64,000 nucleotides of DNA from an uncultured Elusimicrobia bacterium (lineage in GTDB: Bacteria; Elusimicrobiota; Elusimicrobia; 2-01-FULL-59-12): NCBI GenBank assembly GCA_963702895.1, contig OY969767.1:2368001-2432000 (forward strand), written 5' to 3'. Both the position numbers and the translations under genes were made by a program. Shown one piece after another: positions 18,879 through 39,263 of the stretch. Position 1 is the first letter of the stretch. Each line of letters begins with the position of its first letter. The notes beneath the pieces were generated by a model. The model did not search any database. It was not told where the DNA came from and saw nothing but the letters and a program-made list of their open reading frames with translations.

Positions 18879-21800
18879 TCAGGCGTTGGTAAGGAAGGCT
18901 TCGCGGAAGGAATTGAGTTCCTTGGAGAGCGAGAGGGCTTTCTTGTCGCCGGCTAGATCCGGGCGGTTGACCATGCGTTCGGCCACATGGACAAGGTCGT
19001 TGATCGTCGCGCGGCGGCGGCCCGCGCTTTGAGCGGCCTCCACGGTGCTTCCAACCGCTGCGGGCAGCTTAGCGACCTGTTCACTTCTGGCAGCCACATA
19101 GATCTCGGCGATCTTGATGATCCTCGACTCGTCTTCTTCGTTCGGGTTTAAGAGGTGCGCGAGCTCATGGCTTGCGGTCAACAACTTCATCCCGCTCGGC
19201 AGGAAAATATTAACTCTGCCCATGCGCCTAGCGGCAGCGGCATCCCCGAAATGGGTGAGTATTTTCCACCATGAAGCGGTCCGAGAGTCGCCCTCCCGAT
19301 CCTCGTAGCCGTAGGGAAGCAGGGAGATGGGATCCTGCCCCCGATCTTTCAAAATATGATTCAATCCCGCTTCAACGGCCCGCAGTTCCTTAAAAAGATG
19401 CTTCCGATGTTTCGGGGAAAGCGCCGCGCGCGCCATATTCACGGCCATCCCGGCCCAGCCCTTGACGGCCTGCCACAACCGAAAATGATCCAGAAGTTCT
19501 CCGGCGCTCAGGTGCTGGACTTCAGGCCTTGAGGAAGACGCCGCATCGTCTTGGACTGGAAGGTCGGCATCAAGATACGCGTTGACCTTGTCCAAAACCC
19601 GCTCCGCGAATTGATCCGCAGGGATCGTATTTCCTGTCGGAGGCGAACCGTCAGTAGGATAAATAACGTTATGGATGAGCCGCTGAAGCTGTCCGCTGAC
19701 TCTGGGTGCAGCTTCTCTGAGGCTCTCGCCATAGCTATCACTTCCAATGGCTCTTACAAATACGTCTTCCCAGTAATGAGAATCCTTTCCTACAAACGCG
19801 TTACGATGAAAGCGGGAGTGACCAGATGGATCACTAAGATGTGTTCTAGCGACATCCCATAAAATGTTCTCTTCCTGGGTGCGAGTGTCAGTGCGGGTGC
19901 CTGTCACGGCAGATGCGCTAGGTTTCGCCTTGGTGTCTGACACAACAGAGGCGCTAGGTTTCACCGTTGTGTCAGACGCCGGAGCAGATAGAGATCCTTT
20001 GTGATTAATCAATAAATACCCGCCTTCCACCAGCTCTATGACCTTAAATCCATTTTGCTCAAATGCGGGAAGAAGCCCTGGATGAGCATCTAGCATTCCG
20101 GTGGTCATCAGGAACCTGCCGCCATTGACTAAAATCCGCCGAATTTCTGTAGCGGCCGCTTGGTAAAAAGCCTCCGGTCCCTGATCGGCACCTCTTTGCA
20201 AGTCAAAGTATTCGTTGTTGAAAAGGGCAATGCTGATGGCAATATCGAATGAATTATCGCTAAATGGCATTTTCTGCACCTCGCCCTGAACATATGAGCT
20301 ATCTCCTCCTTTGGTTCGCCGCACGATAGGATCCAATCCAACAACCTTCACGCCAAGGCGATGCAAATAGGAGACGAGGTTCCCATCTGTTCGTGGTCCT
20401 GAGCCGATGTTCAAGATCCTGCTTTGGCGAAGACCATCGAGAGTCAATCTATTTTCTCCTGAGCTTTCGAACATGAGTTCTTCGAAAATGTCGATCTCTG
20501 TTGATTCTTCTCCAGTTTGGCGCGGCGGCAAACCGCCAAACGAGGGAGTGTCAATTCTGTCCCGATCCCCCGAACCCACTCTCGTTGTGCCAAGCACCGG
20601 TGCTTGAATCCGTCGGACGGCTGCCGGGGGGACGGTGTGGGTTGGAGTTGGCGGTTGAGTCGAAAACGCTATCATGGCAATGACGTCGTGGAGGTTCTTC
20701 CATTCCTCCCGGGTCAAGGACTGCCCTTGCGTGGCCATGCCCACGATATCGGACAACCAAAGTTGATCCACTTCGCATGCCAATCCTCCAATTCCGAGGA
20801 AGGATGGCAGATGCTCAAAAGGTGCGGAATGATAGAGAGCAGCTGGATCAATTTTCTCAGCAGAAAATTCCTCTACCTTTATCTCAAAACCATGGGCCTT
20901 AACATCCGCCCTTATTTTGTGGATAAGACTTTCGATGTCCCTTCTCGCGGATTTGTCCTTGGAGTTCGAACTTCTCACCAAAATCCGTTTAGGGGGGTGC
21001 TGGTCAAAAAAGATCGCGCGATAGACACGACCGTCAGAGAAGGTCTGGCCAATTTGAGGGGATGAAACTTTAAGGGCGTCCAATCGCGGGGAATCATTAT
21101 CAGGAAATTCAAAAACAATGTCTCCTGACTGGGAACCGAAGAGATCAAGAGGGAGCACTTCCCTTTGCGAAAAACGGATTAACCAGTCCTTATCGATTTG
21201 TGAAATTGGGCTGAATTTCATTAGACGTTTCGCCGCGTGCTTCATATTTTTCCAATCCCGTATGGCTTTCTGTGTTGTGAAGTCGATCTCGCGGAATATT
21301 TTTTCCCATCCCCTATCGCCAATGTTCTCAAGTACACTGGCCTGTTTGATCCAGGCGGCACGCAGCTGGTTCATCAAGGCGTTGTGACGTAGTACCCGTT
21401 TTGGTACAGGGACGGCGTCTCCCGACGCGGTCAGGTAGGCGGGAGTTTCGCCGCGGCGCTCACGCTCGGCTTCGGCCCGTTGATGGTCCTTGTGCGTGAG
21501 GACCTGCGCGAAATAACCAAGGGTCAGGACGGCGAGCGCGTTCGCGAGGCCGCCGAGCAGCCCCACCCAAAAACTTGAGGGGTCGGCATAGAGCCAACCG
21601 ATCACGCTCAGAACAGCCGTAGGGAGCATGATGGACCAGATGGCGATGAAGATCCTTTCTGCACCGTCACCTAGCCGTTCAGCTGCTTTTGGATATTGAT
21701 TTTGAGGAACGAACTTCTTCTCTTTCTCGTCGTAGATCTGGTGCTCGGCGACAAAGAGAAACGGCCGGACCATGAAGTTCCAGAACTCGGGAAGATAGTA

Positions 21801-24800
21801 AGGGGCAAAGTGGTGGTGGATCCAGTCGAGTTCATGATCCTTCAGCTCATTGCCCTTCCGCGTCATGTCCAGATACTTCTGATAGGTTTCAGTTGCTTCC
21901 AGCTTCGGGCGGTTCAGGCTGAAGAACCATCGCAAAAACGCCAGTCGCCCCATCCGCTTTCGGATCAATCCAGCCTTGTAGGTGTTGGGGTGCGTCAGGA
22001 AGGCAAGGCCGGGCTGCTTAGGGCCAAAGACAAGTCTCATATTTTCAAGCGGGGGACCGATGACCTTCTCATAAGCCGAACCCGCTGCCTTACGGATGTC
22101 AGCATCGGGCACGTGGGCTCTTCGCAGCGCCGTGAAAAACCGGGCGGCATCATGGATGCTCACAGGACCCGCAGACTGCGCAATCTCCCGGGCACCTAAA
22201 ATGTCACGGAGACCATCTTCACGAGCCAGAAGGCGAAAGACGGCGCTTGCGACATCGATGTGCTCTTGTTTGGCATCCGGCCCCCCGGCCTTTTTCAAGT
22301 CCTCCAGGTGCCGCAGGAGATCCCAATAAGGATTGTCCGCAAATGCCAAGCCTCCCAAATAAGCGTCCAATTCGCTTGGCAGAGAGTCGCCAGGGGCGGT
22401 TGGTCTCAAGCTTCCGACCCGATCGAGCATGTTACGCCAGAAATGGAGAAACTCATGCTCACGGACGGTTTCCCAGTGTTTTCTGGCGGCCTCACTTTGG
22501 GTGATGCCGCCAAAGGTTTCCAACAGGACATCGCGAGCGATCTTGCTATCGACGCCAAACTTGTCTTTCAGCTCCGCATCGGGCGTATCAAGCAATCTAC
22601 GGTGAGTGGTAGCCGCTACGGGAACGACCCCTTCGTCAATAATGACGGCTTGTTGGTACTGAAGCAAGAAGCCGGTGACATTTCTGCGCTGTCCACTCAC
22701 CAGGCGAGCTGGAATAACCTGCACCAGCCATCGCATGTCATCTCCGCTGATCTCAAAGAACTGGATGCGGCTCTTCTGGAACGAGTAGTAATTGACCCTC
22801 AGCGGTCCTCCCGAATTTTGCCACTCGCATACAAATCCCATACGTTCAAGGTCGTCATTCAACTGAGACATCGCCTTCCCAATCAACGTGGTTCCTTCTT
22901 TGCTATGTTTTTCCGCCCAGGCTTTCACAATATCTTTGGCGTTTTTCGGCAGCTCCTTCGCGTCTTCCAGAATTATTTTCATGTCGAAAATTCCGGTCGT
23001 ATCCGGGATTCGCTCGCTGGCTGCCGGAGGACGACCAGCCGCGGGAGCGCCATGAAACGCGTCTTGAACCGGCGACGCCGCAATCAGGAACATGCCCAGA
23101 ACCACCGGCTGCAGCAATCCCAAGAAGACCCTTGGGATGGTTCTTCTCTTGGCCTTTGGCCCGGCCGAGCCTAAAGCCGCGCTGACCGCTTGCCGCATCG
23201 TGTCGAGAGAGCAAGGTTTTTCAACCAGCTTGATGTCAGGGTGCGTGAGTGCGAATTCCACATCCTTGAGGATGTCGTTGTTCCCGGTAAATAAGATGGC
23301 GCGCATCCCCGGCTGGATGCTTCGAACCTGTTGAATGAGTTCTTCCCCGACCATGGCTGGTTGGCCTTGAGCTGAGAGATCCCTGTCGGTGATGATGAGA
23401 GAAAAATATCCCGGTCCAAAGTCTTTGAGCTTTCTTAAAGCATCTTCAGCGCTGTTGGCTGTGACGACTTCGTACCCCTGGTCCGACAGATCTTCCCCAT
23501 ACGAATCAAGGTTGCCCTTCTCATTATCCACGAGCAGAATTCTTCCCTGGGTTGCGGCCTGGGTGGTCGGGGCCGGGGCCTCACCCGGCGAAGCCGTAGA
23601 GTCAGAGGCGACGATGCTTGCTACGACTGGTGTGTTAACATCCCTTCCAATGCCCTCCCCGCTTTGAATGGGGACGATGTAAGGTCTGCGAACCAAACTT
23701 AAGACGTGATCCTGATTCTCCGGATTCACCCAGCTCACTAGACCTTGGCGAACAAAATCCGGCGGATGGGGATCAAAGAGAGGGTCACCCACGAACCAGG
23801 CTGGCGGTTTTGGCAAAGACGATCGGTAGCGTTCGAACTGGTCAAAAATAGCGGGCACTTCTTCTTTCGCCCTGACTCCTGCATCGGACAGCTTGGTGTC
23901 GAAGCTCAGCAGAGCTCCGATCATATCGCAGCGGACTTCGATCTCGTTCCTCAAGCGATCCGACAGCCCTTTATCGACGAGCAGAATGGATGTGAATGCC
24001 GCGTCCCCTTGCAGAATATGCCCCAGTTCATGGCCAATAATGAAGGCCCGCTGCGGCGGTGTCAGCGTCTTCAGAAAACCCGTGTTCAACAGAATGACCG
24101 GCATCTCGGACAACGAGGCATCATCAAACAAAACGGATCCAAAGGTTGGCGCGTCATCCGCTACGATAATGGTCGTCCTTAAAAGACGTTCCCTGATATG
24201 GGGTGGTATGTCCTGCATCTCAGCCCAGCGATCGCAAGCTCGCTTGAAAATGGCTTCCGCTTCCGCTGTCGCCGCTGGGTTGCGGCGCAGCCCGTGTAAA
24301 AACTTTCGGGCATCCGGCGGCGTGTTGTCCGCCGGCGCACTCTGGGGGGTTGCGGCGCCGGCCGGCGCGATAGCGGTAGCGACTGTTTCGGGGTTGTCCG
24401 GTTTGGTGGCGCGGAGCAGGTAGTAATCCGGGTGCGTGCCGTAGGCGGAGAGCGGGATAAGACGCACGTTCTCGAGGCCGACTTGGCGCAGATCTTCACT
24501 CACATCTTCGGGCTGATCCCCGCGATACTCATAGAACCACCCCAGCGACGAGACAGACAAGATGGAGCGCGTGCCATAGCTCGCGATAAAGATCCGGCCG
24601 CCTGGCTTTAAGACGCGCGCAGCCTCGCGCAAGGCCTGCTGGCGGTCCGGCATATGGCCGAGGCTTTCAAAGAGAAAGACCGCGTCAAATGTGTTATCAC
24701 CAAAGGGTGCCTCCCTGCCATCAGCCCGCGCAAGTCTCCCCTGCATACCATTCTTCTTTGCTTTTTGGAGCTGATGCTCTGACAGGTCAATGCCAAAGAA

Positions 24801-27800
24801 GGAAGACACGATTCCTTTTCGCTGAAGGAATTTTTTAATGAACAACTCTTTTCGACCCGTACCAACGCCGATCGAGAGCACTTTTGAGTTTGGACCGATC
24901 GACCCCCCGATGTGCGAAGCCATTTCTTCGTACTGAGACATTCGTCCTGCGAGCCGGTTGAGAAGTCCGAAGGATATGCCGTCGAGTGTGCTGAATATGA
25001 GGGTAAGACGATGCCACGGGGATGAATAGGCTCGCTGGATGCGTGCCGGAGTGCTGTCGCGGAATGGGGTGCTATGCGCGTCAGATGCTCTTGGGTTCTC
25101 CTCACTGGAGCCGCCGGACGCGGGGCTTCTGCTCCGAGTTCTCTCCCGGATATTGCGCCAACCCCGGCGGATGATCTCGGTCATTCTCGTGATTTCAGTA
25201 TCAGTCAGCATATAGACTCTCTGTACATCTGCTATTTCTTGCTTCGTCAAATCCCCGCCCCGCTGCAGAGTCTCAAGCCATCCGAGGAGCGTCCCAAGCA
25301 GTTGGCCGTATTGATCCATGAACTGCTTAAAGCAAAGTTCAATGTTCTGTCTATCTTCAGGAGAGAGGTCGTATGCTTGCAGTGTTGTTTTGACATTGGT
25401 GAGGATTCGAGCTGTCGTCGATTTTTCGCCTTGATAGGGTTTTTTAATCTCATCGGCTAAAACGCCAGCAATCGACCTTCCTTGAACTTGGATTCTGGGG
25501 TACAAGCGAGCATCAGTAAGCGCTCGCTGAATTCTTCTTTCGAGCTCAACATTCGCCGCCTCCGCTACCGCATCAAGAAGATCCCGCATTTCAAGTTTGA
25601 TCGCGCTTGGCTCCCTCGCCTCAGGCTCCGGCAGGCTCCGGCGGGCGATGGCTTCAGCGCGCTTCCGGTCACTTATGATCGCGGCCTGCTTGTTTTGTTC
25701 AAGGATTGCCTTGTGGACGAGATCCTGCTTATCGCTGGGCTTCTTGTCGGGTTCAATGAGTTTAAATCCAACACCTTGACCTTGCGCGTGAGCAATGTTC
25801 TCCTCCTGCCACGCTTGAACCACATCAAGTTGATCGAGGGCGGTATTGACGCCTTCGTCGGTATAGACCTTCACCGCCGCGTTCAGGTGGACTTGAATGC
25901 CTTCCAGGAGCAGGGAGGGAGTTGGGTTGGGGGTGTTGGGTGCGCCATTGAGCGTGGTTTGAGCTTTTACGACGGCGGCCTTAAGCTGCTCTCGCAAATC
26001 AGTAAGTTGATTTTCCGAAAGCTCGTGTCCCTTGGCAGGCACGATCGCGAAGAACACGGTATCTGGAGGACCGCGGGCGAACCAGAGTTCTCCTTGAAAA
26101 TCGGGCAGTTTTTCGAAGGCTTCCGCCAAGGCCTGATGGGTCACGGTGCGATCGGCGAGGATGACCTGGTCAAAGGCATGCGCTTTGCCCCAACTGGCGA
26201 TGCTTTTGCCTCCCATCCACACGGGCCCCTGCGGATCGGATCGGTCGATATGAACGCGCCGTCCAGTATCTGCCGGCACCCCGAGGGAGTCTCTCAGGGA
26301 ATAGTTGAATTGAATCGAGCCGATGACGAAGGGAGCCTTATAAAGGCCAAAAAAGCTCCACAGACGAATAACGATCTGCCGAAAGGGCTCCGGCAGGTAC
26401 GATTTATCCCGATGCGCGAGTTCCTGGTGGAGCTCTTCCTTAGTTCCGAAATGCACGATGCGGCCTTTTGCGGGCTGAAGCAAGGGGATCGCGGCGTTGG
26501 TCCCTTTTTGAGCCAGCAGCTCATCAATCTGATCCGCCTGCGGGTGATGGCGATTGAGGGCATCTTTCGACCCCTTTGCCGAGGGAAGCTGATCAACTTT
26601 GGGGTCATAGACGACCACGGCATCTTTGATATTGTTCTGGATAGTCTTTGCTCTTTCCAGAGCAAGTCCGGCGAGGTCGCGCGCGTGCTTGAATCGCGCT
26701 CGCGGATGATTGAGATCTTCGCGTTCGGATTCAGGTGTATTTTTTTGTCGCTCCCGAATCTCAATTTCGTAAGTACGGACATGGTTTGCCGACACAATCC
26801 CCGCCGAAACGGTCATGGGGGTCAGGTCCGGGTGGGGGTTGTTCTCATTTGAACCAAATATTCTCCGTACTTGGTTGACCTTTTTCTCTATCTCCTGAGG
26901 GGTTCCGCGGATCACGAACGCCCGTTCATCGCCACCCACCCGTCCACCCACGGCTTTCCCAAGCTCCTGCATGAGCAAGCGCTCAAAACGATCGTAATAA
27001 TCTTGGTTCACGACTGGTTTGGTCAGGAGGTCGTTTTTCTCCCTCCCAAAGTCAAAATCGAAAATGACGAAGGACCAAGAGGCCGGCTCGGGAGTCATCG
27101 CTTCCCCCAGGCGTGCTTCCATGCTCGGCGTTCGGGTCATCGCCCACACGTCGTAGCCGAGATGGATGAGACCAGCAAAGAAAGCGGCAATTACGTAAAG
27201 GAGGGGGTACTGGCCGGGAACGAAGGAAATCGCGAAATAGGGCAGGAGAAAGACAAATTGCCTGGCAAACTGCTTCAGATTTTCGCCAAGCGTCCCGCGC
27301 GGCCGGTGGGGTTCAAACTGTTGGAGAATGAGATGCAAGGCCACCCAGCCCGCCAGGACCCCCAGGAGAGCCACATGCATTGGCCCTTGATCGAACTGGA
27401 TGCTGGCGGCGAACAAGAGAGGGATCTCCGCCACCAGCCCCAACAACCCCATCTTGCGGGCGGTGGATTCCCGAACCCGGAACACCGATTTGCCCAGCCC
27501 ATAGCCGATCGCGTTGGCCCCTGGGCCACCGGTGCCGGAGGGGCGGCCGGACATATCCGTTCCATCCGGAGGGACCGTCCCCATCGGGTGAAATGGGAGG
27601 ATATGAGCTCCCACTGTTCTTGAGGAGCGTGAGGGGCTTGGTTGTTCGTGCGCGGAAGGCATCTGGATAGGTGGGGCATCACCAGCACGCCGGAAGCGAA
27701 CGTCCACTCCGGAAAGGCCGTCCAAGCCCTTTTTGAGATCTTCTGGGAAGCTCTCCCAGGCTTCGGTTTTGACGTCGACCCATAGCACGGACTTTTCAGG

Positions 27801-30800: not shown

Positions 30801-33800
30801 AAACGAAACCGGCAGCTCGGTTAAAGGCTGCATCGGACGGAGCCCTATTGGATAGGGCAGATCCTCAGTTGAAAGCGTCTCTGTGGGAAGAAACAACCCC
30901 ATTCTTCCTGTTTTCTTGCGATACCGTAGAATGCCTCCGCCAACATCAAGACCTACAGGATTGTCTGTCACATCCTTGATCAGAGACCCCCCCGGCGTTT
31001 TCCCGTGGAGCAAGCGACGGATCTTATCCCGAAAAAGCCATATCGTTGTAGCGACGGCGGCCAATCCAATCAGACCGGTCACTATCGCGGGCACCCCTAT
31101 GATGTAGGCCAGCATAAACGCGACCAACGGACCGGACTGAGCGGTCGGCGGAGAGGACGTGGCATCAACATTCGGAGAGTCATCACGCGGGGCCGACGTC
31201 CGTTGAGGCTCGGCGCCGATCACCGCCACGGTGATGTCGTCATCCGTGGCTCGGATGTTGATTTCCTTGGGAAGGCGTGAGCTCGCCCGAGCGGCCTCCG
31301 CCAGCTTCCCCGACAATTCGATGTTCCCCTTCCCAGCGTGAGCGCCCCGCTCAAGAAGGAGGCGAATTGCTTCGTCAGTCAAATTGTCATGGACACCATC
31401 CGTCATCACGAGCACTCGAGTCCCCACAGGAACGACCACACGGGACACTTGGGGATCCGGTACCGCGGGAACTTTGGCCTGAATAAAGTTCGTTACCAGT
31501 TTCCGGGAATCGAACATCTTTCTCTGCTTCTCCGTAGCAAGCTGCTCAGCGCGTGTAACGGACGAGAGGAATTCCTGCTGAGACCCCCTCAGCCGCTGAT
31601 CGATGGCTTCGAATCCGTCGAGGAATCTACCCCGGACGTTATCCACTGTCAAGACGTGGGATGCGTTGTCGGGTAGGACAGCATAGGCGCGTGAATCTCC
31701 GGCATTGAAGGTCAAAACCTCGACATGGCCGCTAGCGCCCGGATCGGGGCGAATGATCGTCAAAGTGGCCGTGCAACCTCGTTTGTCGTCGTGATTCGCT
31801 TTAAGAGTAGCGGCTGCTCGCACCAGAATGTCTTTGACTTGTTCTATCACCTTAGCCGTTGGCTCGACCAAACTCAGCTTCAAAAGTTCCTCTCTTACAA
31901 ACTCGGATACCCACTCACTGGCCAGAGCGCCATTGTTCTCTCCTGCTATTCCGTCAAAGACCGCCGCGACCTGGATGTCGCCGTCCAGCTGAAAAGCGAA
32001 GGCCCTGTCTTCATTGAGCCCGCCCCGCTTTTCATTGGCCAAAGTATAAACAGGGAGATCGCGGCGACTGTCCGACTCCTGACTCGCCGGAGTGTGACCC
32101 AACGTCGCGTTCGTTGGCGATGCGGTGTCGGGCTCCGTTGTGTCAGGCACCGATGGTCGTTGTAAGATTCTAAGCCGCACGAGAAGGGAAGTGACCAGGG
32201 CGCCAAGCCCCCCAACCATGCTTTGGCTAACCTCCGCTGAACGAATCCCATGAAGCGGAAGCGATGGATCGGCCAGGTTGAGGTACGCACCGGCCCCATA
32301 GAGGAGGCCCGCGGCGACCGCCGCTATGAGAATGACCGGGAGCGCGCGACCCAGGCTCCCAAGGAGGGATCCCGGCTCCTTTGCGCCTGGGGTGTCTGGC
32401 ACAGCAGGTGCCCTACGTTGCTCCGTTGTGTCAGGCACCGATGCTTTTGCTGTTTTGTCAGACACCGATGCATTTGCTTGAGAAGGAACTCCGATAAGTG
32501 AAATGTCCAGACCCTCAGTGAGATCAGTTAGAGTCAGGCGGCTTTGTGCTTTTAGATATTCCATTCTCGCTGGCGTGGGCATATGCGGATCCCGCGGCCC
32601 TGAATTAAAACGCTTCTTGCCGCGATATAGTACCTGCAGGTCTGGCAACTGACTCCTTGGTGCGGATGCAGCTTGTGGAGGTCGGCTTTCAATGTAACGC
32701 TCCCACACATCGGGCAGATGTTCCAAATCCTGCATGCTGAATCCCGGCTGCATCACGCGAACCATCAAGAGCCCAAATTGATCGGCATATTTTTCGTCTT
32801 GAGCGCGTTCGAAATAGTCGGTCCATTCATGCACGTACGCGAATTGGCGGGGATCGGTTCTCCGAGCAAAAACTTCCGGGGCCTCAAACACATGCCCCAT
32901 TTCATGCGCAAGACTCCAGATCAACTGAGCCGGAGAAAGAGTGTGGGCGAGAGTCGGGTCGATGAGAATAATCCCGGTCTTATCGGTCGTCAGGGCAAGG
33001 CCTGAGCCTCCCGAAGGGTGTACTAGGAACGCGGCTTTCCGGATGGCGTGCCGTTGCGCTGGGCCCATCTCGACATGACGCAGGATCGTCTTCTTTAAAT
33101 CGTGGAACGTCTTGTATTCCCGTCGATAAAGGATGCGTTGATCGTAAAAAGAGTGTCCGGCCGCCGCGCACAAGGTGACCAGCGTGTCGAGGAGGAGCTT
33201 GATCGGTTGAGACAGCAGCGGGGAAATGAAAACGGGAAGGCTGTACGCGGTGAGAACGGCCAATTGCTTGACGAAAGCCAGCGGGGTGAGTTCGGCAACG
33301 CGTTCCCCGGGCGGGGCCCGGAGCTGACGGATGAGCACAATGCCCATCGGTACCCAATGCACCAGGCCGAAGAGGACCGGGATCCAGCCAAGGACAGGCA
33401 TCAGGACCCCGGCCAGCAGTCCCGTTGCGCCCAGGACGACGCGCTCGGCTTTATACCCGATCCAGCGGTTTTGCGCCCAGCGCAAAGCCACGGCCCGATC
33501 CTTTCCCATAGCCAGTGCCATCCAATACGCCAGGGAAGCCGGAGCCCCTTTCGACGGAGTGCCATCCGACACCGATCCACCGGTGCCTGGCATTGAAAAT
33601 GCACCAGGTTGCTGCGTTGTGACAGGCACCGGCGTATTTTGCTCGCCCGTCTCGAGCAAGTGGAGGACCCTTTTTGCCGCTGCAATCTCGCCCGCACTAG
33701 CCGAGGATGGCTTCCCCGGGGACGAAAAGCGGCGCTCCAGCGCGGCGCCCAGCCGGGGATCGATGGTCCGTCCGCGCGCGATCAGCGATAACAATTCGTC

Positions 33801-36800
33801 TTCCGATACACCAGTTCCCAAATAGAGCCCATCGGCTAATTTGCGGCCAAACAAGCCTTGATCACTACGGATGAAGGGCTTGGTAATGCGAACCAGCTCC
33901 TCTTCCACATCGGGCGGCAATTCTTCAAAAAGGTAGATGGTGACGGGATCGTGCCGATCCATCCAATTGTCGAACCTCGCAGGATATTTCACCGTGACTT
34001 CGATAGAAGCTTCCACAAGATAATGATCGAGCGCTGCCACCAACTCTGGCGAAGCGTGAGCATTGATGGATATCGTGGCGATCGGCCTTTTGCCCGCAAG
34101 ACTCTTTGTTGTCAACAGCCATTCTGGAATATGGGCATGCCAATGGGGAAGCATGCCGTCGTGGAAGACCATCCCCTCGGCCGATTGAGCGGTTCGTTCC
34201 ACGACAGAGGCATCATCCTCAGTCGTTGGGGTATAAGCGCCACGCCGTATTTCTTGATAGGTGCCTTCGATCAGAGTCGTATACGGGTTATCAGAATCGA
34301 TGCGTCCTGATTCTGTGAGGTTCTGCTCTCCGACAACCCCGCGCAAACGGCGAACCTCACGGTCAACACGGTCTTGAAGAAGCTCTGCGGCCGGCGGGGC
34401 CTGGGCGTCATCCATAGCGGCAGGTGACTCGCCACTGGGGGAAGCGCCTATCTTGGCGGCCGCCTCGTTGAGCGATTGATCAATCTGAGCCAAGATCCGT
34501 GCCGCCTCTGCGGACCGGTCACCCGACCTGGCGCTCAGGTATTTTGCAAATTCATCGCGAAGCGTTCTTGCGGCGCGGAGGTCTTCCCCTGCTTTTTCGC
34601 GTTTTCCATCCGCCGTCTTCCGTTTCATTTCATCCTTCAGGGCCGCGAAAGCTTCCTGGATATTGCTCTCGAACAACCGGACGATGTTTAGCTCTTTCTT
34701 TCTCACGTAAAAGGTGTCTTCCTCCGTGGCGACATTCAGGGCGATCAAGGAATACCGTATTCTGGATAGGTTCAGTATCCAAGGCTTGAAATAACACAAG
34801 AGCTGAGCCAACTCATTTCGAAGCTCATCCAGCCGCAGTGCGTCTATCTGTGCCTCTGGTACACCGCTCTTTACCTGAACGAATTCATCATATTGGCCTC
34901 TCCAGCGCTGCAATTCGTCATCGAGGTCTTTGATCTTAGCCGCTATCTCCTGGGGTGTTAACGAATCCCTATCAACATTCACCGGACCCAGATCGCCGGC
35001 TTCGCGTGCCGCTTGTAATAGAACCTCTATGCTTTGATGGGCCTTGCCCAGGGCTTCATGCTGATGTTGAGCCGTGTCAGGGGTCGAAGCCGCAGAGGCA
35101 GGGGTCGGCCGGGCCGCAGGTTGAACGGAGCGGGGAGCTGGCGGAACGATTGGGGAAGAGGGGCGTTGAGTTCCCGGCGGAAGCGCAGGGACGGGCGCCG
35201 GCACGGCGACGGGCGGACTCGCGGCGGCTGCGGCCATAGCGCCTTCGACCAATTCGGCGGTAGGTCCAGCCAATCCTCCCTCCGCGGCCATGACCGCCTC
35301 TTCCACCACCTTCTTGGCGGCGGCAGCCGGTTCAGCGGTGGGCACGGCGGCGATGGGCGCAACCGATGGGGCCGCGGCTGGCGTCGCCGCCGGAGGCACT
35401 ACCGGGATTGGTGTTGCGGTAGGAGCCGGTGTCGGTTCAGGCGCCATCCGGCCAATGACCGTGTGATTCTCTCTTAGAACGAGTGACATCCGAGGAGTGG
35501 TGGTAATCAATCTGTACTGGTTGGCTTGAATGACATTGTTCGCCGTAGAAAGCGACTGGTCGACACCGAGAATGTTGTCCGTCATGAAGAATTGAAAAGA
35601 CTCACCGGCAGGGAGAGGAACAGAGAAACGATAGCCCCGTGTTCCTCCGGCTAAGAAATGGTACTCGCTCTCAACCGGTTTGGCATCCTTCGTGTCCCAG
35701 CGGGCTTCAGGTTTGATTTCCTCAATCGTCCTGTCTTGACGAACGATGTAGAAGTGATACGCGCTGGACGTCGGCGCAGGCGCATTGATGTAGAAGGACA
35801 CCGGCTTCGGTGTGGGGGTCTGAGATGGTGCCGCTGGAGCAACTGGCACCGGAGCCGTTCCAGCCTTTGCGTCAGGCGGCCTTCCAGTAGGTTCTTGTGC
35901 GAAAGCCTCGAGAGGGTCGTCTTCTGTCGGCTCTTCTCTCGCAGGGCGGGCCGAGGCGGCACCGTCGGCAAGCGTTATTGTCGCCGCCGGCTTTTCAGGC
36001 ACAGCTCCCGGCGCGAATTGCTCGAGAGGATTTGTCATCTCTCTCTCACGGCCGGCAGCGGCGTCAGCTACGGCAGGCGCGGTGGCCAGGGGAGGGGTGG
36101 CTGTTTCTCCTTCCGCTGTCGATGCCCTGGCCGCGCGCCGTGACCAGAGGCGATACCCCACATAGACCGTGATCAGCGCCAGCCCAACGAGGACAGCTCC
36201 GGCGAGGTAGGGATGATTGAAGATAGACAAGAGCATCTCCTGCCATAGAGAGATGTCGACCGCGGGCGGAGCGGGGATCGCTCCGGGCTGAACCACGCCC
36301 GAGAGTTCGGGGAGTGTCGGCAGGGCCGCCGTCATGGCATCGGGATGAAGCTTGAGAAATTCGGCCTGGACGGCCGCCGGCAGGCTGCTCAGGTCGATGA
36401 CGCTTCCCGCCTGGAGGCTGCCGGGAGCGACCTGCTCGTAGGCCTTTTGGATCGCAGACCAATCCATTTCCCCCTGAAACAGGCCAGCCTGCTTCATCGA
36501 CTTCAGGATTTCGAGGCCAATCTGCCCGGGGGTGTTCTGCGCCGGGTTGGCGGCGCTCCATGTTCCGACGTTGTAAAAAAGACGAGACGCTGTTCCGGCC
36601 ACCTGGACGACATGGGGAGCGACATAAGGCGCGGGCGCCGCCCCAGCGGGTCCCGCAAAGAACAAACCTAGCCCCGCGATCACCGCACTGGCGCTACCCC
36701 AACGGAGTATTCGGCTAATGGTCTGTGGACTTCTGTCTCTACCGATGGCCGAGGCGACTGCCACAGCAGATGTGTCTGGTTGCTTCGTTGTGTCAGACAC

Positions 36801-38897
36801 CGATGCTTTGGACACCGATGCTTTGGATAAAACGTCTTCCGCCAAGGCTTTGACTTGCTCTCTTCGGAAGGATGGAACATAGTTAAGTCTTTGGAGAATG
36901 TCCTCACGGGAAAGGCCCTGCCGGTGCCATCTCCGAACAACAAATTGGATGAAGCTCTTCGGCGCGATCCCAAATCCGACGGCCAGAGCCGTGCTCTCGT
37001 GCTTGAAGAAGTGGAGCCCCGCCAGCCAGGTCTTGAGCCGGGAGTCTTCGCCGCCGAGCTGGTCGGCTGCTTCAGCGATCTCCTGCGTCGTGAGCGCCTG
37101 GCCGTTTAAACGCTTGATATAGAGCGCGTGGTCGGCTTCGGTGAGCCGGTCGACCGCGGGCGTGATGACCACATAGCTCACGTTTTTCTCGCGCAGCATT
37201 TGCGTGATGGGAGAGGTGTGGAAGCCGCCGGTCACCAACACAGCAGTATCGGGGTATCGGAGTAACGGGGTATCGGGGTATCGGGGTATCGGAGTAACGG
37301 GGTTACGACTCTGACGTGACTCCGGCACTCCGGTACTCCGATACTCCGATACGGACGGAGACCCGAGCAACGCGAGGGTATGGTCCACCATCGGCCGGTT
37401 GCGCACCATCGCCATGGCATAGTAGTCGATGCTGCTTGATATGAGCTCGCGCAGTTGAGAGTTCCTGGTTTCTAGTTCCTTGTTCCTGGTTTGTGAAGGC
37501 GGGCCCGAACCAGAAACCAGGAACCCGGAACCAGGAACTGGCTTTAGCAGCGCGTCTGCTAAAGCCACAAACTGATTGAGGCGCGGCCCGAAGGTCCGGA
37601 CTTCCTTCTCAGTGGCGCGCAGGTCGGCGACTTTCACCAGCAGCTGCAGATCGTGTTCGACTTGGACTAAGTCAGAGACGAGCGATGAGGGACGAGGGAC
37701 GAGTGAAGAGGGACGGCTGGATGACGCGGCGACAGGGGCAACGGCTGACGCGGCAACGCGGGGACGCGGGGACGCGGGGGACGGCTGACGCGGCGACGCG
37801 GCGACAGGGGCAACGGCTGACGCGGCGACGCGGGGACGCGGTGAACCGTTCTCCGTGTCTGCGCGTCTGCGCGTCTGCGCGTCGGCCTCTTTGCGGGCGA
37901 TTTCCATCTTGATCATGTACGCGACGGAGGCGATATTGTCATAGAGCGCGTCGCTCTTCGACTTGCGCAGGCCGCTGATGTCGAGGTCGAGGTCCTTGGC
38001 CTCGCTTTCCAGCACGGACAGAATCCGGGCCATGCTCAGGCGCCCCTTCTCAAACTGCTCAAGCCGCCGCTCGAAGATCTTCAGGCGCCGGGAATAGGTC
38101 TTGCGCTTGAGTTCCGTTAAATCGCTTTGCATCCCCCGCAAGAGGCTCACATACCGATCGCGCTCGGCCCAAGTCTTCCGGAAGAGTTCCCGGTGAAGCT
38201 CGTAGTACGTTCCGTCTTCCACCCCCATGAGGGCGTCCGGCAGGCCGCGCATCACGGCAAAATATTCGGCGCCGGTCAGTTCCCCCTGCTTCATCAGGTA
38301 ATCCGCGGCGGCCTGCTTGATTTTCTTGTCCGGGAAAAGGGCCATGACGGAGGAGTCGATGGGACCTTGCGCTCCCTCTACCGCTAACGCGAACGGGAGC
38401 GCTGAAGTATCGGGGTATCGGGGTGTCGGGGTAACGGCAGTATCGGAGTATCGGTGTATCGGTGTATCGGTGTAACGACCTGTGTGCGACTTCGTTACTC
38501 CGTTACTCCGATACTCCGATACTCCGGTACTGATTTTTGGCAGCTTTTCCGCCAAAAATCCAAGGATTCCCGCAATATTTTTTTGCACACCGTAATGAGC
38601 GTGGAGGTCCTGGATGAGGATGACCAGGGGCCGTATCGGGGTGTCGGGGTAACGGGGTGTCGGGGTAACATCTTGCCGTGACGCCGATACACCGTTACTC
38701 CGATACTCCGTTACTGGCGCTACCCAATGGTCGACCAAGTACCCAAGCTTTGCCGGAGGCGCAAGCCGCACGCCGAGCGGCCGCTCCGGGAGCCCCGAAG
38801 CGATCTCGGCGGTGGCGCTGGAAGTCGCGACAAGAGCCAGGCATAAAGCGGTCGCCAGGCTCTGCCGAAAGAATCGCAAGAGAGTTAATGTTTTCAT
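18879..38897 (-). CDS. Giant (6672 aa) multi-domain membrane protein
   Basis: Uninterrupted 20-kb ORF; signal peptide; ChaN/TraB-like domain; HEXXH x4; PP2C motifs; kinase-like; GGDER; two SAM-MTases; REC; many TM segments. Confidence 0.9.
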   Translation of the reverse strand: MKTLTLLRFFRQSLATALCLALVATSSATAEIASGLPERPLGVRLAPPAKLGYLVDHWVAPVTEYRSNGVSASRQDVTPTPRYPDTPIRPLVILIQDLHAHYGVQKNIAGILGFLAEKLPKISTGVSEYRSNGVTKSHTGRYTDTPIHRYSDTAVTPTPRYPDTSALPFALAVEGAQGPIDSSVMALFPDKKIKQAAADYLMKQGELTGAEYFAVMRGLPDALMGVEDGTYYELHRELFRKTWAERDRYVSLLRGMQSDLTELKRKTYSRRLKIFERRLEQFEKGRLSMARILSVLESEAKDLDLDISGLRKSKSDALYDNIASVAYMIKMEIARKEADAQTRRRADTENGSPRPRVAASAVAPVAASPRQPSPASPRPRVAASAVAPVAASSSRPSSLVPRPSSLVSDLVQVEHDLQLLVKVADLRATEKEVRTFGPRLNQFVALADALLKPVPGSGFLVSGSGPPSQTRNKELETRNSQLRELISSSIDYYAMAMVRNRPMVDHTLALLGSPSVSEYRSTGVPESRQSRNPVTPIPRYPDTPLLRYPDTAVLVTGGFHTSPITQMLREKNVSYVVITPAVDRLTEADHALYIKRLNGQALTTQEIAEAADQLGGEDSRLKTWLAGLHFFKHESTALAVGFGIAPKSFIQFVVRRWHRQGLSREDILQRLNYVPSFRREQVKALAEDVLSKASVSKASVSDTTKQPDTSAVAVASAIGRDRSPQTISRILRWGSASAVIAGLGLFFAGPAGAAPAPYVAPHVVQVAGTASRLFYNVGTWSAANPAQNTPGQIGLEILKSMKQAGLFQGEMDWSAIQKAYEQVAPGSLQAGSVIDLSSLPAAVQAEFLKLHPDAMTAALPTLPELSGVVQPGAIPAPPAVDISLWQEMLLSIFNHPYLAGAVLVGLALITVYVGYRLWSRRAARASTAEGETATPPLATAPAVADAAAGREREMTNPLEQFAPGAVPEKPAATITLADGAASARPAREEPTEDDPLEAFAQEPTGRPPDAKAGTAPVPVAPAAPSQTPTPKPVSFYINAPAPTSSAYHFYIVRQDRTIEEIKPEARWDTKDAKPVESEYHFLAGGTRGYRFSVPLPAGESFQFFMTDNILGVDQSLSTANNVIQANQYRLITTTPRMSLVLRENHTVIGRMAPEPTPAPTATPIPVVPPAATPAAAPSVAPIAAVPTAEPAAAAKKVVEEAVMAAEGGLAGPTAELVEGAMAAAAASPPVAVPAPVPALPPGTQRPSSPIVPPAPRSVQPAARPTPASAASTPDTAQHQHEALGKAHQSIEVLLQAAREAGDLGPVNVDRDSLTPQEIAAKIKDLDDELQRWRGQYDEFVQVKSGVPEAQIDALRLDELRNELAQLLCYFKPWILNLSRIRYSLIALNVATEEDTFYVRKKELNIVRLFESNIQEAFAALKDEMKRKTADGKREKAGEDLRAARTLRDEFAKYLSARSGDRSAEAARILAQIDQSLNEAAAKIGASPSGESPAAMDDAQAPPAAELLQDRVDREVRRLRGVVGEQNLTESGRIDSDNPYTTLIEGTYQEIRRGAYTPTTEDDASVVERTAQSAEGMVFHDGMLPHWHAHIPEWLLTTKSLAGKRPIATISINAHASPELVAALDHYLVEASIEVTVKYPARFDNWMDRHDPVTIYLFEELPPDVEEELVRITKPFIRSDQGLFGRKLADGLYLGTGVSEDELLSLIARGRTIDPRLGAALERRFSSPGKPSSASAGEIAAAKRVLHLLETGEQNTPVPVTTQQPGAFSMPGTGGSVSDGTPSKGAPASLAYWMALAMGKDRAVALRWAQNRWIGYKAERVVLGATGLLAGVLMPVLGWIPVLFGLVHWVPMGIVLIRQLRAPPGERVAELTPLAFVKQLAVLTAYSLPVFISPLLSQPIKLLLDTLVTLCAAAGHSFYDQRILYRREYKTFHDLKKTILRHVEMGPAQRHAIRKAAFLVHPSGGSGLALTTDKTGIILIDPTLAHTLSPAQLIWSLAHEMGHVFEAPEVFARRTDPRQFAYVHEWTDYFERAQDEKYADQFGLLMVRVMQPGFSMQDLEHLPDVWERYIESRPPQAASAPRSQLPDLQVLYRGKKRFNSGPRDPHMPTPARMEYLKAQSRLTLTDLTEGLDISLIGVPSQANASVSDKTAKASVPDTTEQRRAPAVPDTPGAKEPGSLLGSLGRALPVILIAAVAAGLLYGAGAYLNLADPSLPLHGIRSAEVSQSMVGGLGALVTSLLVRLRILQRPSVPDTTEPDTASPTNATLGHTPASQESDSRRDLPVYTLANEKRGGLNEDRAFAFQLDGDIQVAAVFDGIAGENNGALASEWVSEFVREELLKLSLVEPTAKVIEQVKDILVRAAATLKANHDDKRGCTATLTIIRPDPGASGHVEVLTFNAGDSRAYAVLPDNASHVLTVDNVRGRFLDGFEAIDQRLRGSQQEFLSSVTRAEQLATEKQRKMFDSRKLVTNFIQAKVPAVPDPQVSRVVVPVGTRVLVMTDGVHDNLTDEAIRLLLERGAHAGKGNIELSGKLAEAARASSRLPKEINIRATDDDITVAVIGAEPQRTSAPRDDSPNVDATSSPPTAQSGPLVAFMLAYIIGVPAIVTGLIGLAAVATTIWLFRDKIRRLLHGKTPGGSLIKDVTDNPVGLDVGGGILRYRKKTGRMGLFLPTETLSTEDLPYPIGLRPMQPLTELPVSFEDIPQSKVVMPEKDVFLVSRIDSGSGGLVRLGYLADGRPVAVITSYPSHPLSPNQLEAQLLRDFRGALLNQRLGVGPEAHGKDRDRDRRWNIVVDITPGDMPEVMAKKLTPQTINDLREIHRRFESVGMRITGDFQYFVSASGRIQLIDPAFIYDEFTHARPDWNDEYLFHLSNLLKYLSADHQVQALSELKREEPKNFSLLEKWNQEEIAGLERRLSRTEFVNIEDEIADRNRVQANLLNANNLKDNLKKVVGMKESDQTERPRVSLEQTSPDALPATNPKRDTEDTPAPPAGDALTHPDTYLAGAILYRLGEPIYLRWRLYRALGWTSRRVAIEKETRLVLGDMMKPIKWQLTPEERRKIEEDFAPWFERRHFRNAQCAQDFVDDHLVSQQDIQAYRQVHPDSWKLNDTAVEQRIRRARGQGMRGIVAAGRAGARQGLLAGLAVGAGLALAVLPLGMAFSQSFHGTMFSLDIFLLSLLTEAILTALSAGLGHRLGGDHANVLAHTFYNEAHANDGAALTAGGPAAPATSVTPTPPLKLGAPQFGEGWHVGKHPAAKPMSDRQMVQVHGPPIDEQPGSGRKGRKPTSKKSEKKPGTWLIPWKNLKPLIGHVVYFVTDAQQRNGKWMLHPKLRPFAKLDAYEALGYSTNQTDRRVKLITVYALTAGPEGVSWIPQKIVGSRVKSELSYGRIICVRGDRGTPVFVDNPLWSTAPVAKENLISSSSLLTPQEHTNRGRRVRSGPSGAASLPMWLALAWGKDANSERVRSLGKWGGLAEASIATVLIGVSLLHPLGWLSYALWGLGFAHVPLAIIANYRARDDLSFFPRLANAFGRGLVQSIIPALIFGLYGFAAVPAVPFLQLTPSPLAIIASTAMIAASHSLFDFLTSGRLLEDLAFQQLKRDVNILGNLADWASSYKRGTFYGAVYDVPSLEDKKFPDIHLDAHGNTNIVLQHRDESYLFIEWDQRGKELRFARANDLIGDKDWSPHPLKENPFQRIQFDPEKSVLWVDVKTEAWESFPEDLKKGLDGLSGVDVRFRRAGDAPPIQMPSAHEQPSPSRSSRTVGAHILPFHPMGTVPPDGTDMSGRPSGTGGPGANAIGYGLGKSVFRVRESTARKMGLLGLVAEIPLLFAASIQFDQGPMHVALLGVLAGWVALHLILQQFEPHRPRGTLGENLKQFARQFVFLLPYFAISFVPGQYPLLYVIAAFFAGLIHLGYDVWAMTRTPSMEARLGEAMTPEPASWSFVIFDFDFGREKNDLLTKPVVNQDYYDRFERLLMQELGKAVGGRVGGDERAFVIRGTPQEIEKKVNQVRRIFGSNENNPHPDLTPMTVSAGIVSANHVRTYEIEIRERQKNTPESEREDLNHPRARFKHARDLAGLALERAKTIQNNIKDAVVVYDPKVDQLPSAKGSKDALNRHHPQADQIDELLAQKGTNAAIPLLQPAKGRIVHFGTKEELHQELAHRDKSYLPEPFRQIVIRLWSFFGLYKAPFVIGSIQFNYSLRDSLGVPADTGRRVHIDRSDPQGPVWMGGKSIASWGKAHAFDQVILADRTVTHQALAEAFEKLPDFQGELWFARGPPDTVFFAIVPAKGHELSENQLTDLREQLKAAVVKAQTTLNGAPNTPNPTPSLLLEGIQVHLNAAVKVYTDEGVNTALDQLDVVQAWQEENIAHAQGQGVGFKLIEPDKKPSDKQDLVHKAILEQNKQAAIISDRKRAEAIARRSLPEPEAREPSAIKLEMRDLLDAVAEAANVELERRIQRALTDARLYPRIQVQGRSIAGVLADEIKKPYQGEKSTTARILTNVKTTLQAYDLSPEDRQNIELCFKQFMDQYGQLLGTLLGWLETLQRGGDLTKQEIADVQRVYMLTDTEITRMTEIIRRGWRNIRERTRSRSPASGGSSEENPRASDAHSTPFRDSTPARIQRAYSSPWHRLTLIFSTLDGISFGLLNRLAGRMSQYEEMASHIGGSIGPNSKVLSIGVGTGRKELFIKKFLQRKGIVSSFFGIDLSEHQLQKAKKNGMQGRLARADGREAPFGDNTFDAVFLFESLGHMPDRQQALREAARVLKPGGRIFIASYGTRSILSVSSLGWFYEYRGDQPEDVSEDLRQVGLENVRLIPLSAYGTHPDYYLLRATKPDNPETVATAIAPAGAATPQSAPADNTPPDARKFLHGLRRNPAATAEAEAIFKRACDRWAEMQDIPPHIRERLLRTTIIVADDAPTFGSVLFDDASLSEMPVILLNTGFLKTLTPPQRAFIIGHELGHILQGDAAFTSILLVDKGLSDRLRNEIEVRCDMIGALLSFDTKLSDAGVRAKEEVPAIFDQFERYRSSLPKPPAWFVGDPLFDPHPPDFVRQGLVSWVNPENQDHVLSLVRRPYIVPIQSGEGIGRDVNTPVVASIVASDSTASPGEAPAPTTQAATQGRILLVDNEKGNLDSYGEDLSDQGYEVVTANSAEDALRKLKDFGPGYFSLIITDRDLSAQGQPAMVGEELIQQVRSIQPGMRAILFTGNNDILKDVEFALTHPDIKLVEKPCSLDTMRQAVSAALGSAGPKAKRRTIPRVFLGLLQPVVLGMFLIAASPVQDAFHGAPAAGRPPAASERIPDTTGIFDMKIILEDAKELPKNAKDIVKAWAEKHSKEGTTLIGKAMSQLNDDLERMGFVCEWQNSGGPLRVNYYSFQKSRIQFFEISGDDMRWLVQVIPARLVSGQRRNVTGFLLQYQQAVIIDEGVVPVAATTHRRLLDTPDAELKDKFGVDSKIARDVLLETFGGITQSEAARKHWETVREHEFLHFWRNMLDRVGSLRPTAPGDSLPSELDAYLGGLAFADNPYWDLLRHLEDLKKAGGPDAKQEHIDVASAVFRLLAREDGLRDILGAREIAQSAGPVSIHDAARFFTALRRAHVPDADIRKAAGSAYEKVIGPPLENMRLVFGPKQPGLAFLTHPNTYKAGLIRKRMGRLAFLRWFFSLNRPKLEATETYQKYLDMTRKGNELKDHELDWIHHHFAPYYLPEFWNFMVRPFLFVAEHQIYDEKEKKFVPQNQYPKAAERLGDGAERIFIAIWSIMLPTAVLSVIGWLYADPSSFWVGLLGGLANALAVLTLGYFAQVLTHKDHQRAEAERERRGETPAYLTASGDAVPVPKRVLRHNALMNQLRAAWIKQASVLENIGDRGWEKIFREIDFTTQKAIRDWKNMKHAAKRLMKFSPISQIDKDWLIRFSQREVLPLDLFGSQSGDIVFEFPDNDSPRLDALKVSSPQIGQTFSDGRVYRAIFFDQHPPKRILVRSSNSKDKSARRDIESLIHKIRADVKAHGFEIKVEEFSAEKIDPAALYHSAPFEHLPSFLGIGGLACEVDQLWLSDIVGMATQGQSLTREEWKNLHDVIAMIAFSTQPPTPTHTVPPAAVRRIQAPVLGTTRVGSGDRDRIDTPSFGGLPPRQTGEESTEIDIFEELMFESSGENRLTLDGLRQSRILNIGSGPRTDGNLVSYLHRLGVKVVGLDPIVRRTKGGDSSYVQGEVQKMPFSDNSFDIAISIALFNNEYFDLQRGADQGPEAFYQAAATEIRRILVNGGRFLMTTGMLDAHPGLLPAFEQNGFKVIELVEGGYLLINHKGSLSAPASDTTVKPSASVVSDTKAKPSASAVTGTRTDTRTQEENILWDVARTHLSDPSGHSRFHRNAFVGKDSHYWEDVFVRAIGSDSYGESLREAAPRVSGQLQRLIHNVIYPTDGSPPTGNTIPADQFAERVLDKVNAYLDADLPVQDDAASSSRPEVQHLSAGELLDHFRLWQAVKGWAGMAVNMARAALSPKHRKHLFKELRAVEAGLNHILKDRGQDPISLLPYGYEDREGDSRTASWWKILTHFGDAAAARRMGRVNIFLPSGMKLLTASHELAHLLNPNEEDESRIIKIAEIYVAARSEQVAKLPAAVGSTVEAAQSAGRRRATINDLVHVAERMVNRPDLAGDKKALSLSKELNSFREAFLTNA
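19932..19980. repeat. 49-bp junction unit (15-19-15 inverted repeat)
   Basis: ggtgtctgacacaac-agaggcgctaggtttcacc-gttgtgtcagacgcc; partial tandem copy at 19896-19929. Confidence 0.8.
32391..32439. repeat. 49-bp junction unit
   Basis: ggtgtctggcacagc-aggtgccctacgttgctcc-gttgtgtcaggcacc; 32421-32443 is identical to 32133-32155. Confidence 0.8.
33582..33630. repeat. 49-bp junction unit
   Basis: ggtgcctggcattga-aaatgcaccaggttgctgc-gttgtgacaggcacc. Confidence 0.75.
36753..36801. repeat. 49-bp junction unit
   Basis: ggcgactgccacagc-agatgtgtctggttgcttc-gttgtgtcagacacc, followed by a short tandem duplication of gacaccgatgctttg. Confidence 0.75.
37246..37352. repeat. In-frame octamer-tandem hairpin (GTATCGGR family)
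   Basis: Tandem gtatcggg/gtaacggg followed by inverted actccgat units; encodes SVSEYRSTG..PRYPDTPLLRYPDT. Confidence 0.85.
37460..37539. repeat. In-frame heptamer-tandem hairpin (GAACCAG family)
   Basis: agttcctggtttctagttccttgttcctggtt ... gaaccagaaaccaggaacccggaaccaggaact; encodes VPGSGFLVSGS..TRNKELETRN. Confidence 0.8.
37677..37883. repeat. In-frame heptamer (GACGAGG) and octamer (GACGCGGS / CGCGTCTG) tandem arrays
   Basis: gacgagc gatgagg gacgagg gacgagt gaagagg, then gacgcggc/gacgcggg units and inverted gcgcgtct units. Confidence 0.8.
38407..38530. repeat. In-frame octamer-tandem hairpin (GTATCGGR family)
   Basis: gtatcggggtatcggggtgtcggggtaacgg.. then ttactccgttactccgatactccgatac. 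Confidence 0.85.
38633..38714. repeat. In-frame octamer-tandem hairpin (GTATCGGR family)
   Basis: gtatcggggtgtcggggtaacggggtgtcggggtaac ... ccgatacaccgttactccgatactccgttac. Confidence 0.85.
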
Positions 38898-39227: not shown

Positions 39228-39256
39228 TTGATATATAGAGTTACTGATTCTATAAT
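39228..39256 (+). promoter_or_regulatory. Sigma70 promoter for a leaderless ATPase mRNA
   Basis: TTGATA-17 bp-TATAAT with an AT-rich upstream tract; ATG at 39264, 7 nt after the -10; no SD. Confidence 0.7.
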
Positions 39257-39263
39257 ACGACCA

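Follow-up and report, generated by a model that had tools for sequence, protein, structure and literature searches.

The window that we analysed is a 64,000-nt stretch of the genome of an uncultured Elusimicrobia bacterium, and it holds a giant modular ORF of 6,672 codons on the minus strand (18879..38897; 20,019 bp), the strand on which its units and domains given below also lie. Its aa 1-690 (36828..38897) form an N-terminal domain that is conserved in the giant family; cargo domains follow, with membrane segments and linkers between them. Among these modules are a HopA1-like region (33648..34430), a membrane module with an M48-like (HExxH) domain (aa 1782-2154, 32436..33554), a PP2C domain (31371..32033) and the methyltransferase MTase #2 (19983..20504). 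The labels PP2C and methyltransferase, given in the original prediction, are confirmed by Pfam; M48 #1 stays below the Pfam threshold (E 0.058), and the HopA1-like label, which has no Pfam match, is a weak one based on ESM Atlas neighbours with PF17914 in 11-29% of their members. A full HMMER search gives many relatives of the HopA1-like region, and a word-index protein search among shorter proteins gave no match to it or to the C-terminal regions. P0015, a protein from another public assembly, is identical to the product of the giant ORF over aa 1329-6672, which argues against an assembly artefact, though P0015 may derive from the same reads. We had considered it as a 92% relative; being identical, it offers no break points to compare.

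Four full copies of a 49-bp inverted-repeat unit lie in the linkers of this gene, at the positions and with the linker placement originally reported. Unit 1 (36753..36801, aa 699-715) comes directly after the N-terminal domain and is preceded by a 15-bp tandem duplication. Unit 2 (33582..33630, aa 1756-1772) separates the HopA1-like region from a repeated membrane module, and 75 of the 111 HopA1-like homologues that reach the end of that region stop within 15 aa of its position. Unit 3 (32391..32439, aa 2153-2169) follows the HExxH/M48-like domain, and units 2 and 3 stand at the two sides of the membrane and M48-like module. Unit 4 (19896..19980, aa 6306-6334), after MTase #2, is a three-arm composite of two overlapping units, 19932-19980 and 19896-19944, with one arm in common. 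The partial copies of the original prediction exist in a corrected form: that at 19896 is the whole second unit sharing an arm in unit 4; that at 32133-32155 is part of a derived 63-bp copy before PP2C (32089..32151), with a left arm and first 20 nt like unit 3, a longer spacer and a right arm; and that placed at about 32455-32470 is a left-arm copy at 32452..32466, derived from a 27-bp tandem duplication ahead of unit 3. Unit 3 and the 63-bp copy share 23 identical bp, 4 bp of flank included, and an upstream flank is common to units 1 and 3. A possible left half-site before MTase #2 (20584..20598, aa 6100), in the same frame as the units, scores 11.7 bits with an independent model, where 0.2-0.7 are expected by chance, and is not significant alone. 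A script finds 30 linker-like stretches in the giant ORF, 5 of which hold units and a sixth the doubtful half-site; we derive no p-value from these counts because the composition of the units itself helps define the linkers. Most junctions in the giant gene have no unit, in line with the earlier remark that not every junction has one.

Among the copies, 12 of 16 third codon positions are invariant versus 2 of 16 residues, and therefore the likeness of the units is at the DNA level; the claim that DNA is better conserved than peptide holds. With a profile made from the other three copies, each full copy scores 42-57 bits and is among the five best matches of the genome. When the profile is restricted to non-coding units, unit 1 scores 29.3, unit 2 31.4 and unit 3 49.0 bits, and the two overlapping units of unit 4 score 46.1 and 41.4 bits. 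With at most 2 mismatches, the window has 11 occurrences of the left arm, against 0.60 expected, and 10 of the 11 fall inside the giant gene; 0 of 100 shuffles reach 11. The arms are complementary at 11, 10, 12 and 14 of 15 positions in the four full copies. Copies in the giant gene are alike at 33-39 of 49 bases among themselves and at 24-34 of 49 bases when compared with intergenic copies.

The unit is also found outside the giant gene. A profile built from 8 intergenic copies alone gives 21 matches above 14 bits in the host genome and recovers 5 of 5 giant-gene copies, compared with 0-6 matches for column-shuffled matrices. A second profile, built from 35 non-coding units and used at 13 bits, gives 19 matches there: 5 in the giant gene (29-49 bits), 12 strong intergenic ones (28-52 bits, these being in the training set) and 2 weak ones. 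With three further intergenic 48-bp variants beyond these matches, the host has more intergenic than intragenic copies. Gene-less forms occur as singles, as inverted doublets of 110-133 bp and as three-arm composites. Partial copies pile up at bases 19-21, which we do not take as a fixed break point: the pile-up is inherent in the profile, and chance matches (10-36 per genome) would fall there too. Arm-like matches at G000 130519, 180878 and 1125786 lie inside ORFs at IS110 loci and were treated as chance. Among 10 genomes of the family, a strict pattern derived from the window has 0 matches, and the profile model finds the unit in 8. A class-wide sample scanned with a stricter cut-off has it only in the order of the host (7 of 10 and 1 of 1 genomes; 0 of 139 others). 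It was found in 0 of 12, 0 of 12 and 0 of 15 genomes of the families f4, f6 and f11, though giant-family genes are present there. An exact pattern scan of the GTDB collection gave 7 stretches, all labelled Elusimicrobiota, and the viral contigs searched gave 0 matches.

Scanning of 30 Y1 transposase loci from the family, with a matrix free of any transposase-flanking sequence, shows that the unit adjoins the Y1 gene at 6 loci. These encode proteins of about 220 aa, which are 6 of the 7 in a single group assigned to Pfam Y1_Tnp (PF01797), with 47-63% identity to L036. At three of them (L170, L173 and L174), an inverted pair of units surrounds the Y1 gene with outer arms outward, and one unit of the pair is at or overlaps the 3' end of the gene; at L172, L171 and L175, composite or single units lie beside it. 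In G006 and G003, Y1 genes are likewise flanked by the three-arm form seen in unit 4. Long inverted repeats flanking a Y1 gene, with a GGGGWSAS-like arm motif, are described as TIRtrons in the accessible text of Di Nocera et al. 2013 (PMC3733652), as are gene-less repeats in singles, dimers and groups. Here, GGGGWSAS is exact in the flanks in G001 and G010 and in the giant-gene copy of G001; the arms in the window are one or two bases off, with GGTG- in place of GGGG-. Aligned with Table 1 of Quentin et al. 2018 (PMC6006769), the Y1 proteins carry NH[YF]H, FQ, Y[IV]HLNP-type and serine motifs; they also have a conserved C-terminal tail of about 80 aa, in which Pfam called no HTH. According to the available portion of the same paper, most TIRYTs fall in TnpA-Y1 subclass 2.1. 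From these arrangements and motifs, the 49-bp unit is the terminal inverted repeat (TIR) of a lineage-specific TIRtron, in which a Y1/HUH gene for about 220 aa lies between two repeats, and the unit-linked Y1 genes are placed among the TIRYTs, in TnpA-Y1 subclass 2.1. A RAYT-type enzyme, which had been named among the recombinases to look for, thus adjoins the unit in relatives. We found no intact Y1 gene in the host genome; its only Y1 sequence is an 89-codon N-terminal fragment (G000:390659-390889), far from the giant gene and with no unit beside it. Since the host is without an intact cognate gene, the copies in the window are orphan TIR derivatives rather than a TIRtron.

Counting matches above 14 bits in the DNA of ORFs, we find in-frame copies to be strongly enriched in the giant-protein family and its linkers. 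The giant gene (20,019 bp) has 5, and 1,108 ordinary ORFs totalling 1.77 Mb have 1. Relatives contribute 56 family ORFs or fragments (349,377 bp), which contain 8, all within 5 ORFs and none in the other 51; this set is non-independent because L091 was fetched for its unit and some ORFs are duplicates. In fifteen further ORFs of giant type from the host genome, selected by eye and totalling 146,901 bp, there are 0 above 14 bits and 0 above 11 bits, an absence that tolerance alone does not explain. An ordinary repeat scattered over the genome was the outcome against which the original prediction was set; the repeat is indeed dispersed, with its 12 intergenic copies, yet its in-frame copies are biased to the giant-gene family. 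As also predicted, all four full units share orientation and frame: they lie on the coding strand and start at a third codon position (aa 699, 1756, 2153 and 6306). The same strand and frame are used by 7 of the 8 DNA-verified units in family ORFs of relatives, the eighth being half of an in-frame inverted doublet. Of the six frames, the used one gives peptides with the fewest hydrophobic residues (1.9 each) and the fewest Cys (0.17), which accounts for the choice of frame. Strand is explained in part only, since the matching opposite-strand frame is open in 33 of the 35 non-coding units (the used frame is stop-free in 24 of 35), being slightly more hydrophobic than the used frame. Replication-strand bias was rejected as a cause of the orientation: by hand count, 4 solo intergenic copies are leading and 3 lagging.

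The unit flanks Y1 genes in relatives, occurs gene-less and enters ORFs. Based on these findings, we propose that miniature elements derived from a TIRYT probably accumulated in permissive linkers, with the frame set by what the peptide tolerates. HUH chemistry consists of nicking and rejoining of single-stranded DNA. From this chemistry, and partly from the portion of PMC6006769 available, a cognate TIRYT, since lost from the host save for the fragment, would have nicked and re-joined single-stranded DNA at the element ends and thereby spread gene-less copies. Selection would remove copies landing in folded domains or in unfavourable frames and retain those that lie in linkers rich in Pro, Ser and Thr and are read in the least hydrophobic frame. 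Local copying inside the giant gene may then have multiplied the units, and the closer likeness of the giant-gene copies to one another could be due to it. According to this scheme, the units mark linkers because linkers tolerate them; once placed, they may serve as secondary break points, not as builders of giant genes.

This insertion model agrees with what is seen in other genes, where every testable in-frame site (5 of 5) is an insertion that leaves the gene colinear. Four of these sites lie in a LuxE-like gene (L107), an AddB-like gene (L099) and DsbD (L177, which has two); the G000 orthologues of these genes remain colinear on both sides of the unit, and the alignments show that it adds about 9-12 residues net. 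In L108, a composite unit lies exactly at the junction of TPR and the next module, and we considered it as a unit-made gene fusion. This was ruled out, as the junction is already in frame in 9 of 11 homologues from other families (of the remaining two, one is cut by a contig end and one has a short N-terminus); therefore, a unit at a domain junction need not have made the junction. Several junctions of the giant family also do without it. Of 14 partner copies of the module that follows unit 2, only 1 is preceded by a unit-like peptide. A kinase-like block common to P0001 (58%) has no unit at either end, the PP2C domain recurs in L002, the giant of G003, with no unit in front, and MTase #2 recurs in P0007 with no unit-like peptide after it. 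Thus, of the proposal that the units are recombination or insertion sites of an in-frame cassette-assembly system, the mobile-DNA site stands and the dedicated assembly system is not supported. Within the giant family, no clean empty site was found. P0007 was considered as an empty site at unit 3; its colinearity across the unit is weak (26 of 2000 shuffles reach it, and it ranks third of 3068 windows), and it was left out of the 5 insertion sites. L124 as a decayed unit found no support.

Another explanation, compatible with insertion, is that same-orientation copies drive deletions, duplications and gene conversion by passive recombination that involves no dedicated enzyme. The 23-bp identity of unit 3 and the 63-bp copy, which extends into the flank, the tandem duplications at units 1 and 3 and the lack of an intact Y1 gene in the host all favour it, as does an intergenic duplication in the host that starts and ends at element ends (G000 627481-629469 versus 633306-634053). 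The copies are, however, only 67-80% identical over 49 bp, and no deletion product is seen. A length of 49 bp at such identity is short for RecA-type exchange. We consider a role of this kind possible rather than probable; passive recombination between copies could add to insertion or to the enzyme-driven joining discussed next.

TIRYT-driven joining would mean that the Y1 enzyme makes its cut at or within the unit and attaches foreign DNA there, so that some junctions are scars of in-frame domain capture. In L135, homology to the giant gene ends at unit 1, where L135 likewise carries a unit, and the sequence beyond is unrelated, which is what joining would give; its unit and unit 1, however, agree at only 27 of 49 bases, a level that unrelated family members also reach. 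In P0006 (protein only), a membrane module occurs three times in nearly identical form; each time it stops 6-7 residues into a unit-like peptide, and unrelated cargo follows. In P0021, a unit-like peptide precedes a module of the type found after unit 2. Unit calls in P0001, P0002, P0006, P0007, P0014, P0021 and P0147 are made on the peptide only and are weak and near background, control frames giving 2-3 matches above 13 bits versus 5. The membrane and M48-like block is common to P0007 as one block (53%), and each of the two blocks shared with P0007 has a unit or half-site no more than 16 aa from either border. Whether module breakpoints fall in the unit, a check put forward with the original prediction, depends on the blocks taken: borders of blocks shared at 45% identity or more lie at units in 5 of 10 cases, or 6 of 10 counting the half-site (binomial p 0.03 or 0.006, with a 45% cut-off chosen after seeing the data), whereas of all block borders (about 21, a hand-made list) 6 lie at a unit or half-site (p 0.23). 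Joining could also produce the arrangement in a giant-gene cluster of G005, where the flanks of an intact TIRtron are duplicated and a pair of toxin-antitoxin-like genes has been inserted. The repeat-bounded duplication in G000 may be counted here too, although ordinary recombination between repeats would equally give it. Weighing these cases with the P0001 block and the 1 of 14 partner copies, and with L108, the best apparent fusion, having proved an insertion, we regard joining as unlikely. Its furthest form, in which TIRYT would be a domesticated single-stranded-DNA joining enzyme that splices foreign pieces in frame with a cut near base 21-23, the units being docking sites for cargo, we hold to be improbable.

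We also considered that the in-frame units are domesticated regulatory sites, kept as protein-binding or RNA-folding sites that tune the 20-kb transcript. The conserved synonymous positions (12 of 16) and the persistence of a unit at an equivalent position between lineages with about 50% protein identity would fit this idea, but DNA conservation is explained by recent origin, only 2 of the 4 full units fold as DNA with arms fully paired, an Rfam search of window positions 18000-41000 gave no match, and the unit is absent from most orthologues; such a role is very improbable. An integron-, shufflon- or IS110-type site-specific system within one ORF, the integron-like arrangement of the original prediction, is largely refuted by the Y1 linkage and can be given next to no credence: direct orientation, fixed spacing, junction placement and a host genome with 4 tyrosine recombinases, 13 IS110 matches and 1 resolvase would suit it, but the best match to the integron integrase TIGR02249 has 91.7 bits against a cut-off of 265, the nearest IS110 is about 21 kb from the giant gene, the unit-linked gene in relatives is a Y1 transposase, and cassettes do not carry their own site, which rarely travels with a module. 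Excised circles or joints were looked for in one low-depth contig set (run X1), whose pieces of only about 150 nt carry no information on them.

TIRtrons, orphan TIR families and in-frame palindromic inserts are already published. The elements described here share with TIRtrons and TIRYTs the inverted repeats around a Y1/HUH gene, GGGGWSAS-like arms, gene-less repeats and the protein motifs NH[YF]H, FQ and Y[IV]xLNP. They differ from them, as far as the accessible descriptions go, by a lineage-specific 49/48-bp repeat with a conserved asymmetric spacer, by in-frame copies concentrated in a giant modular family and by loss of the enzyme from the host. Intragenic REPs and Rickettsia palindromic elements are likewise small palindromes read through in frame, and the available text of PMC3733652 suggests that inserts of this kind could be neutral where linkers or loops are flexible; unlike those treated there, the window units are not GTAG- or CGTC-tagged hairpins, and they lie mostly in one giant mosaic family, with several copies per gene in one orientation. 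A classical GTAG REP or REPIN is also a poor fit, as the GTAG-like core is mid-spacer and stands before a hairpin in only 1 of 4 window copies. Integron attC arrays resemble the units as imperfect, directly oriented inverted repeats between unrelated modules; here, in contrast, there is no integron integrase, the site is not carried with the module, and copies lie inside ordinary colinear genes. The giant membrane proteins of Omnitrophota (bioRxiv 10.1101/2023.11.21.568195; 10.64898/2026.06.07.730766) are comparable in their very long ORFs with unrelated enzyme domains and membrane segments, whereas ours is an Elusimicrobiota family of 2-13 thousand aa, and the accessible text on the former describes no repeat-based assembly. 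TnpA-REP of subclass 2.1 near prochlorosin genes (bioRxiv 10.1101/2020.03.09.984088) is of the same subclass and has been put forward as a source of diversity in a host gene family, with a causal link as unproven as in the present case; no inverted repeats were found there, whereas here repeats lie inside the target genes.

The present analysis names a candidate enzyme-site pair, the 220-aa Y1 protein and the 49-bp repeat, that can be assayed. The L108 control cautions that repeats at module junctions can be later insertions. If only insertion took place, the giant gene would be a new example of in-frame palindromic elements that lengthen protein linkers. If joining took place at some copies, it would be a route of domain shuffling that we did not find in the literature searched; open-access listings and abstracts gave nothing on TIRYT repeats inside giant modular proteins. 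If the docking-site reading were true, it would provide the first sequence-defined growth route for giant mosaic proteins and the first function for subclass 2.1 Y1 transposases. Of additional note, the loops of the N-terminal domain of the giant ORF host a second in-frame repeat family, of 8-nt tandem hairpins, which we counted for tolerated insertion. At six unit-bearing loci examined with ARAGORN, a single tRNA-Val was detected, near one copy.

Inverted doublets, in which two copies of the 49-bp unit are paired, lie around genes in the host genome (G000). At one locus (L025, G000:C1:627479-634061), four doublets of the same orientation are placed between small genes, much as in a cassette array. 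The locus includes a doublet-gene-doublet block that is present twice, with duplication boundaries that coincide with element ends; an insertion sequence interrupts one of the two copies. At another locus (L024, C1:404291-409293), two 133-bp doublets that are 91% identical to each other bracket 4.7 kb containing four genes, among them those for an ankyrin protein and a DUF2846 protein.

Among the relatives, transposase genes are found next to giant-type ORFs, that is, ORFs of the kind of the modular giant gene. In G005, such ORFs stand on both sides of an intact TIRtron, a Y1/HUH transposase gene between two units (L170:5573-7475); its 3' flank is duplicated, truncated transposase ends are present, and a small gene pair, toxin-antitoxin-like as judged by eye, sits between the flank duplicates. 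In G002 (L167:747-7212), a giant-type ORF of 1,864 aa lies directly downstream of a Y1 gene from another subgroup and itself contains an arm palindrome. Medium-sized giant-type genes form an array in G008 (L093:1-16027), separated by repeated blocks of 300-600 bp, two of which have a unit at their end. In G007 (L104:1648-3965), a related arm with another tail occurs in seven copies at cassette-array-like spacing. The giant-gene fragments of G003 carry a different repeated linker peptide, seen twice (L002, aa 1118-1165; L091, aa 735-773), with one occurrence immediately preceding PP2C.

Two further features were noted in the host genome. The gene at C1:2516958-2518013 encodes a phage-type tyrosine recombinase, not an integron integrase; the unit at 2512575 lies 4.4 kb away from it. 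A second, more abundant family of intergenic hairpin repeats occupies dozens of sites, for example near C1:891950-892000.

Within the window, in-frame hairpins of 8-nt tandem repeats fall in loops of the giant gene's N-terminal domain (37220-38725); by a crude count, there are 25 such runs in 167 kb of giant-type ORFs, compared with 116 in ordinary ORFs totalling 1.77 Mb. An AAA_14 + DUF4143 ATPase gene borders the giant gene on each side (17434-18753 and 39228-40439), and the class II ribonucleotide reductase encoded at 49530-54302 contains a LAGLIDADG intein.
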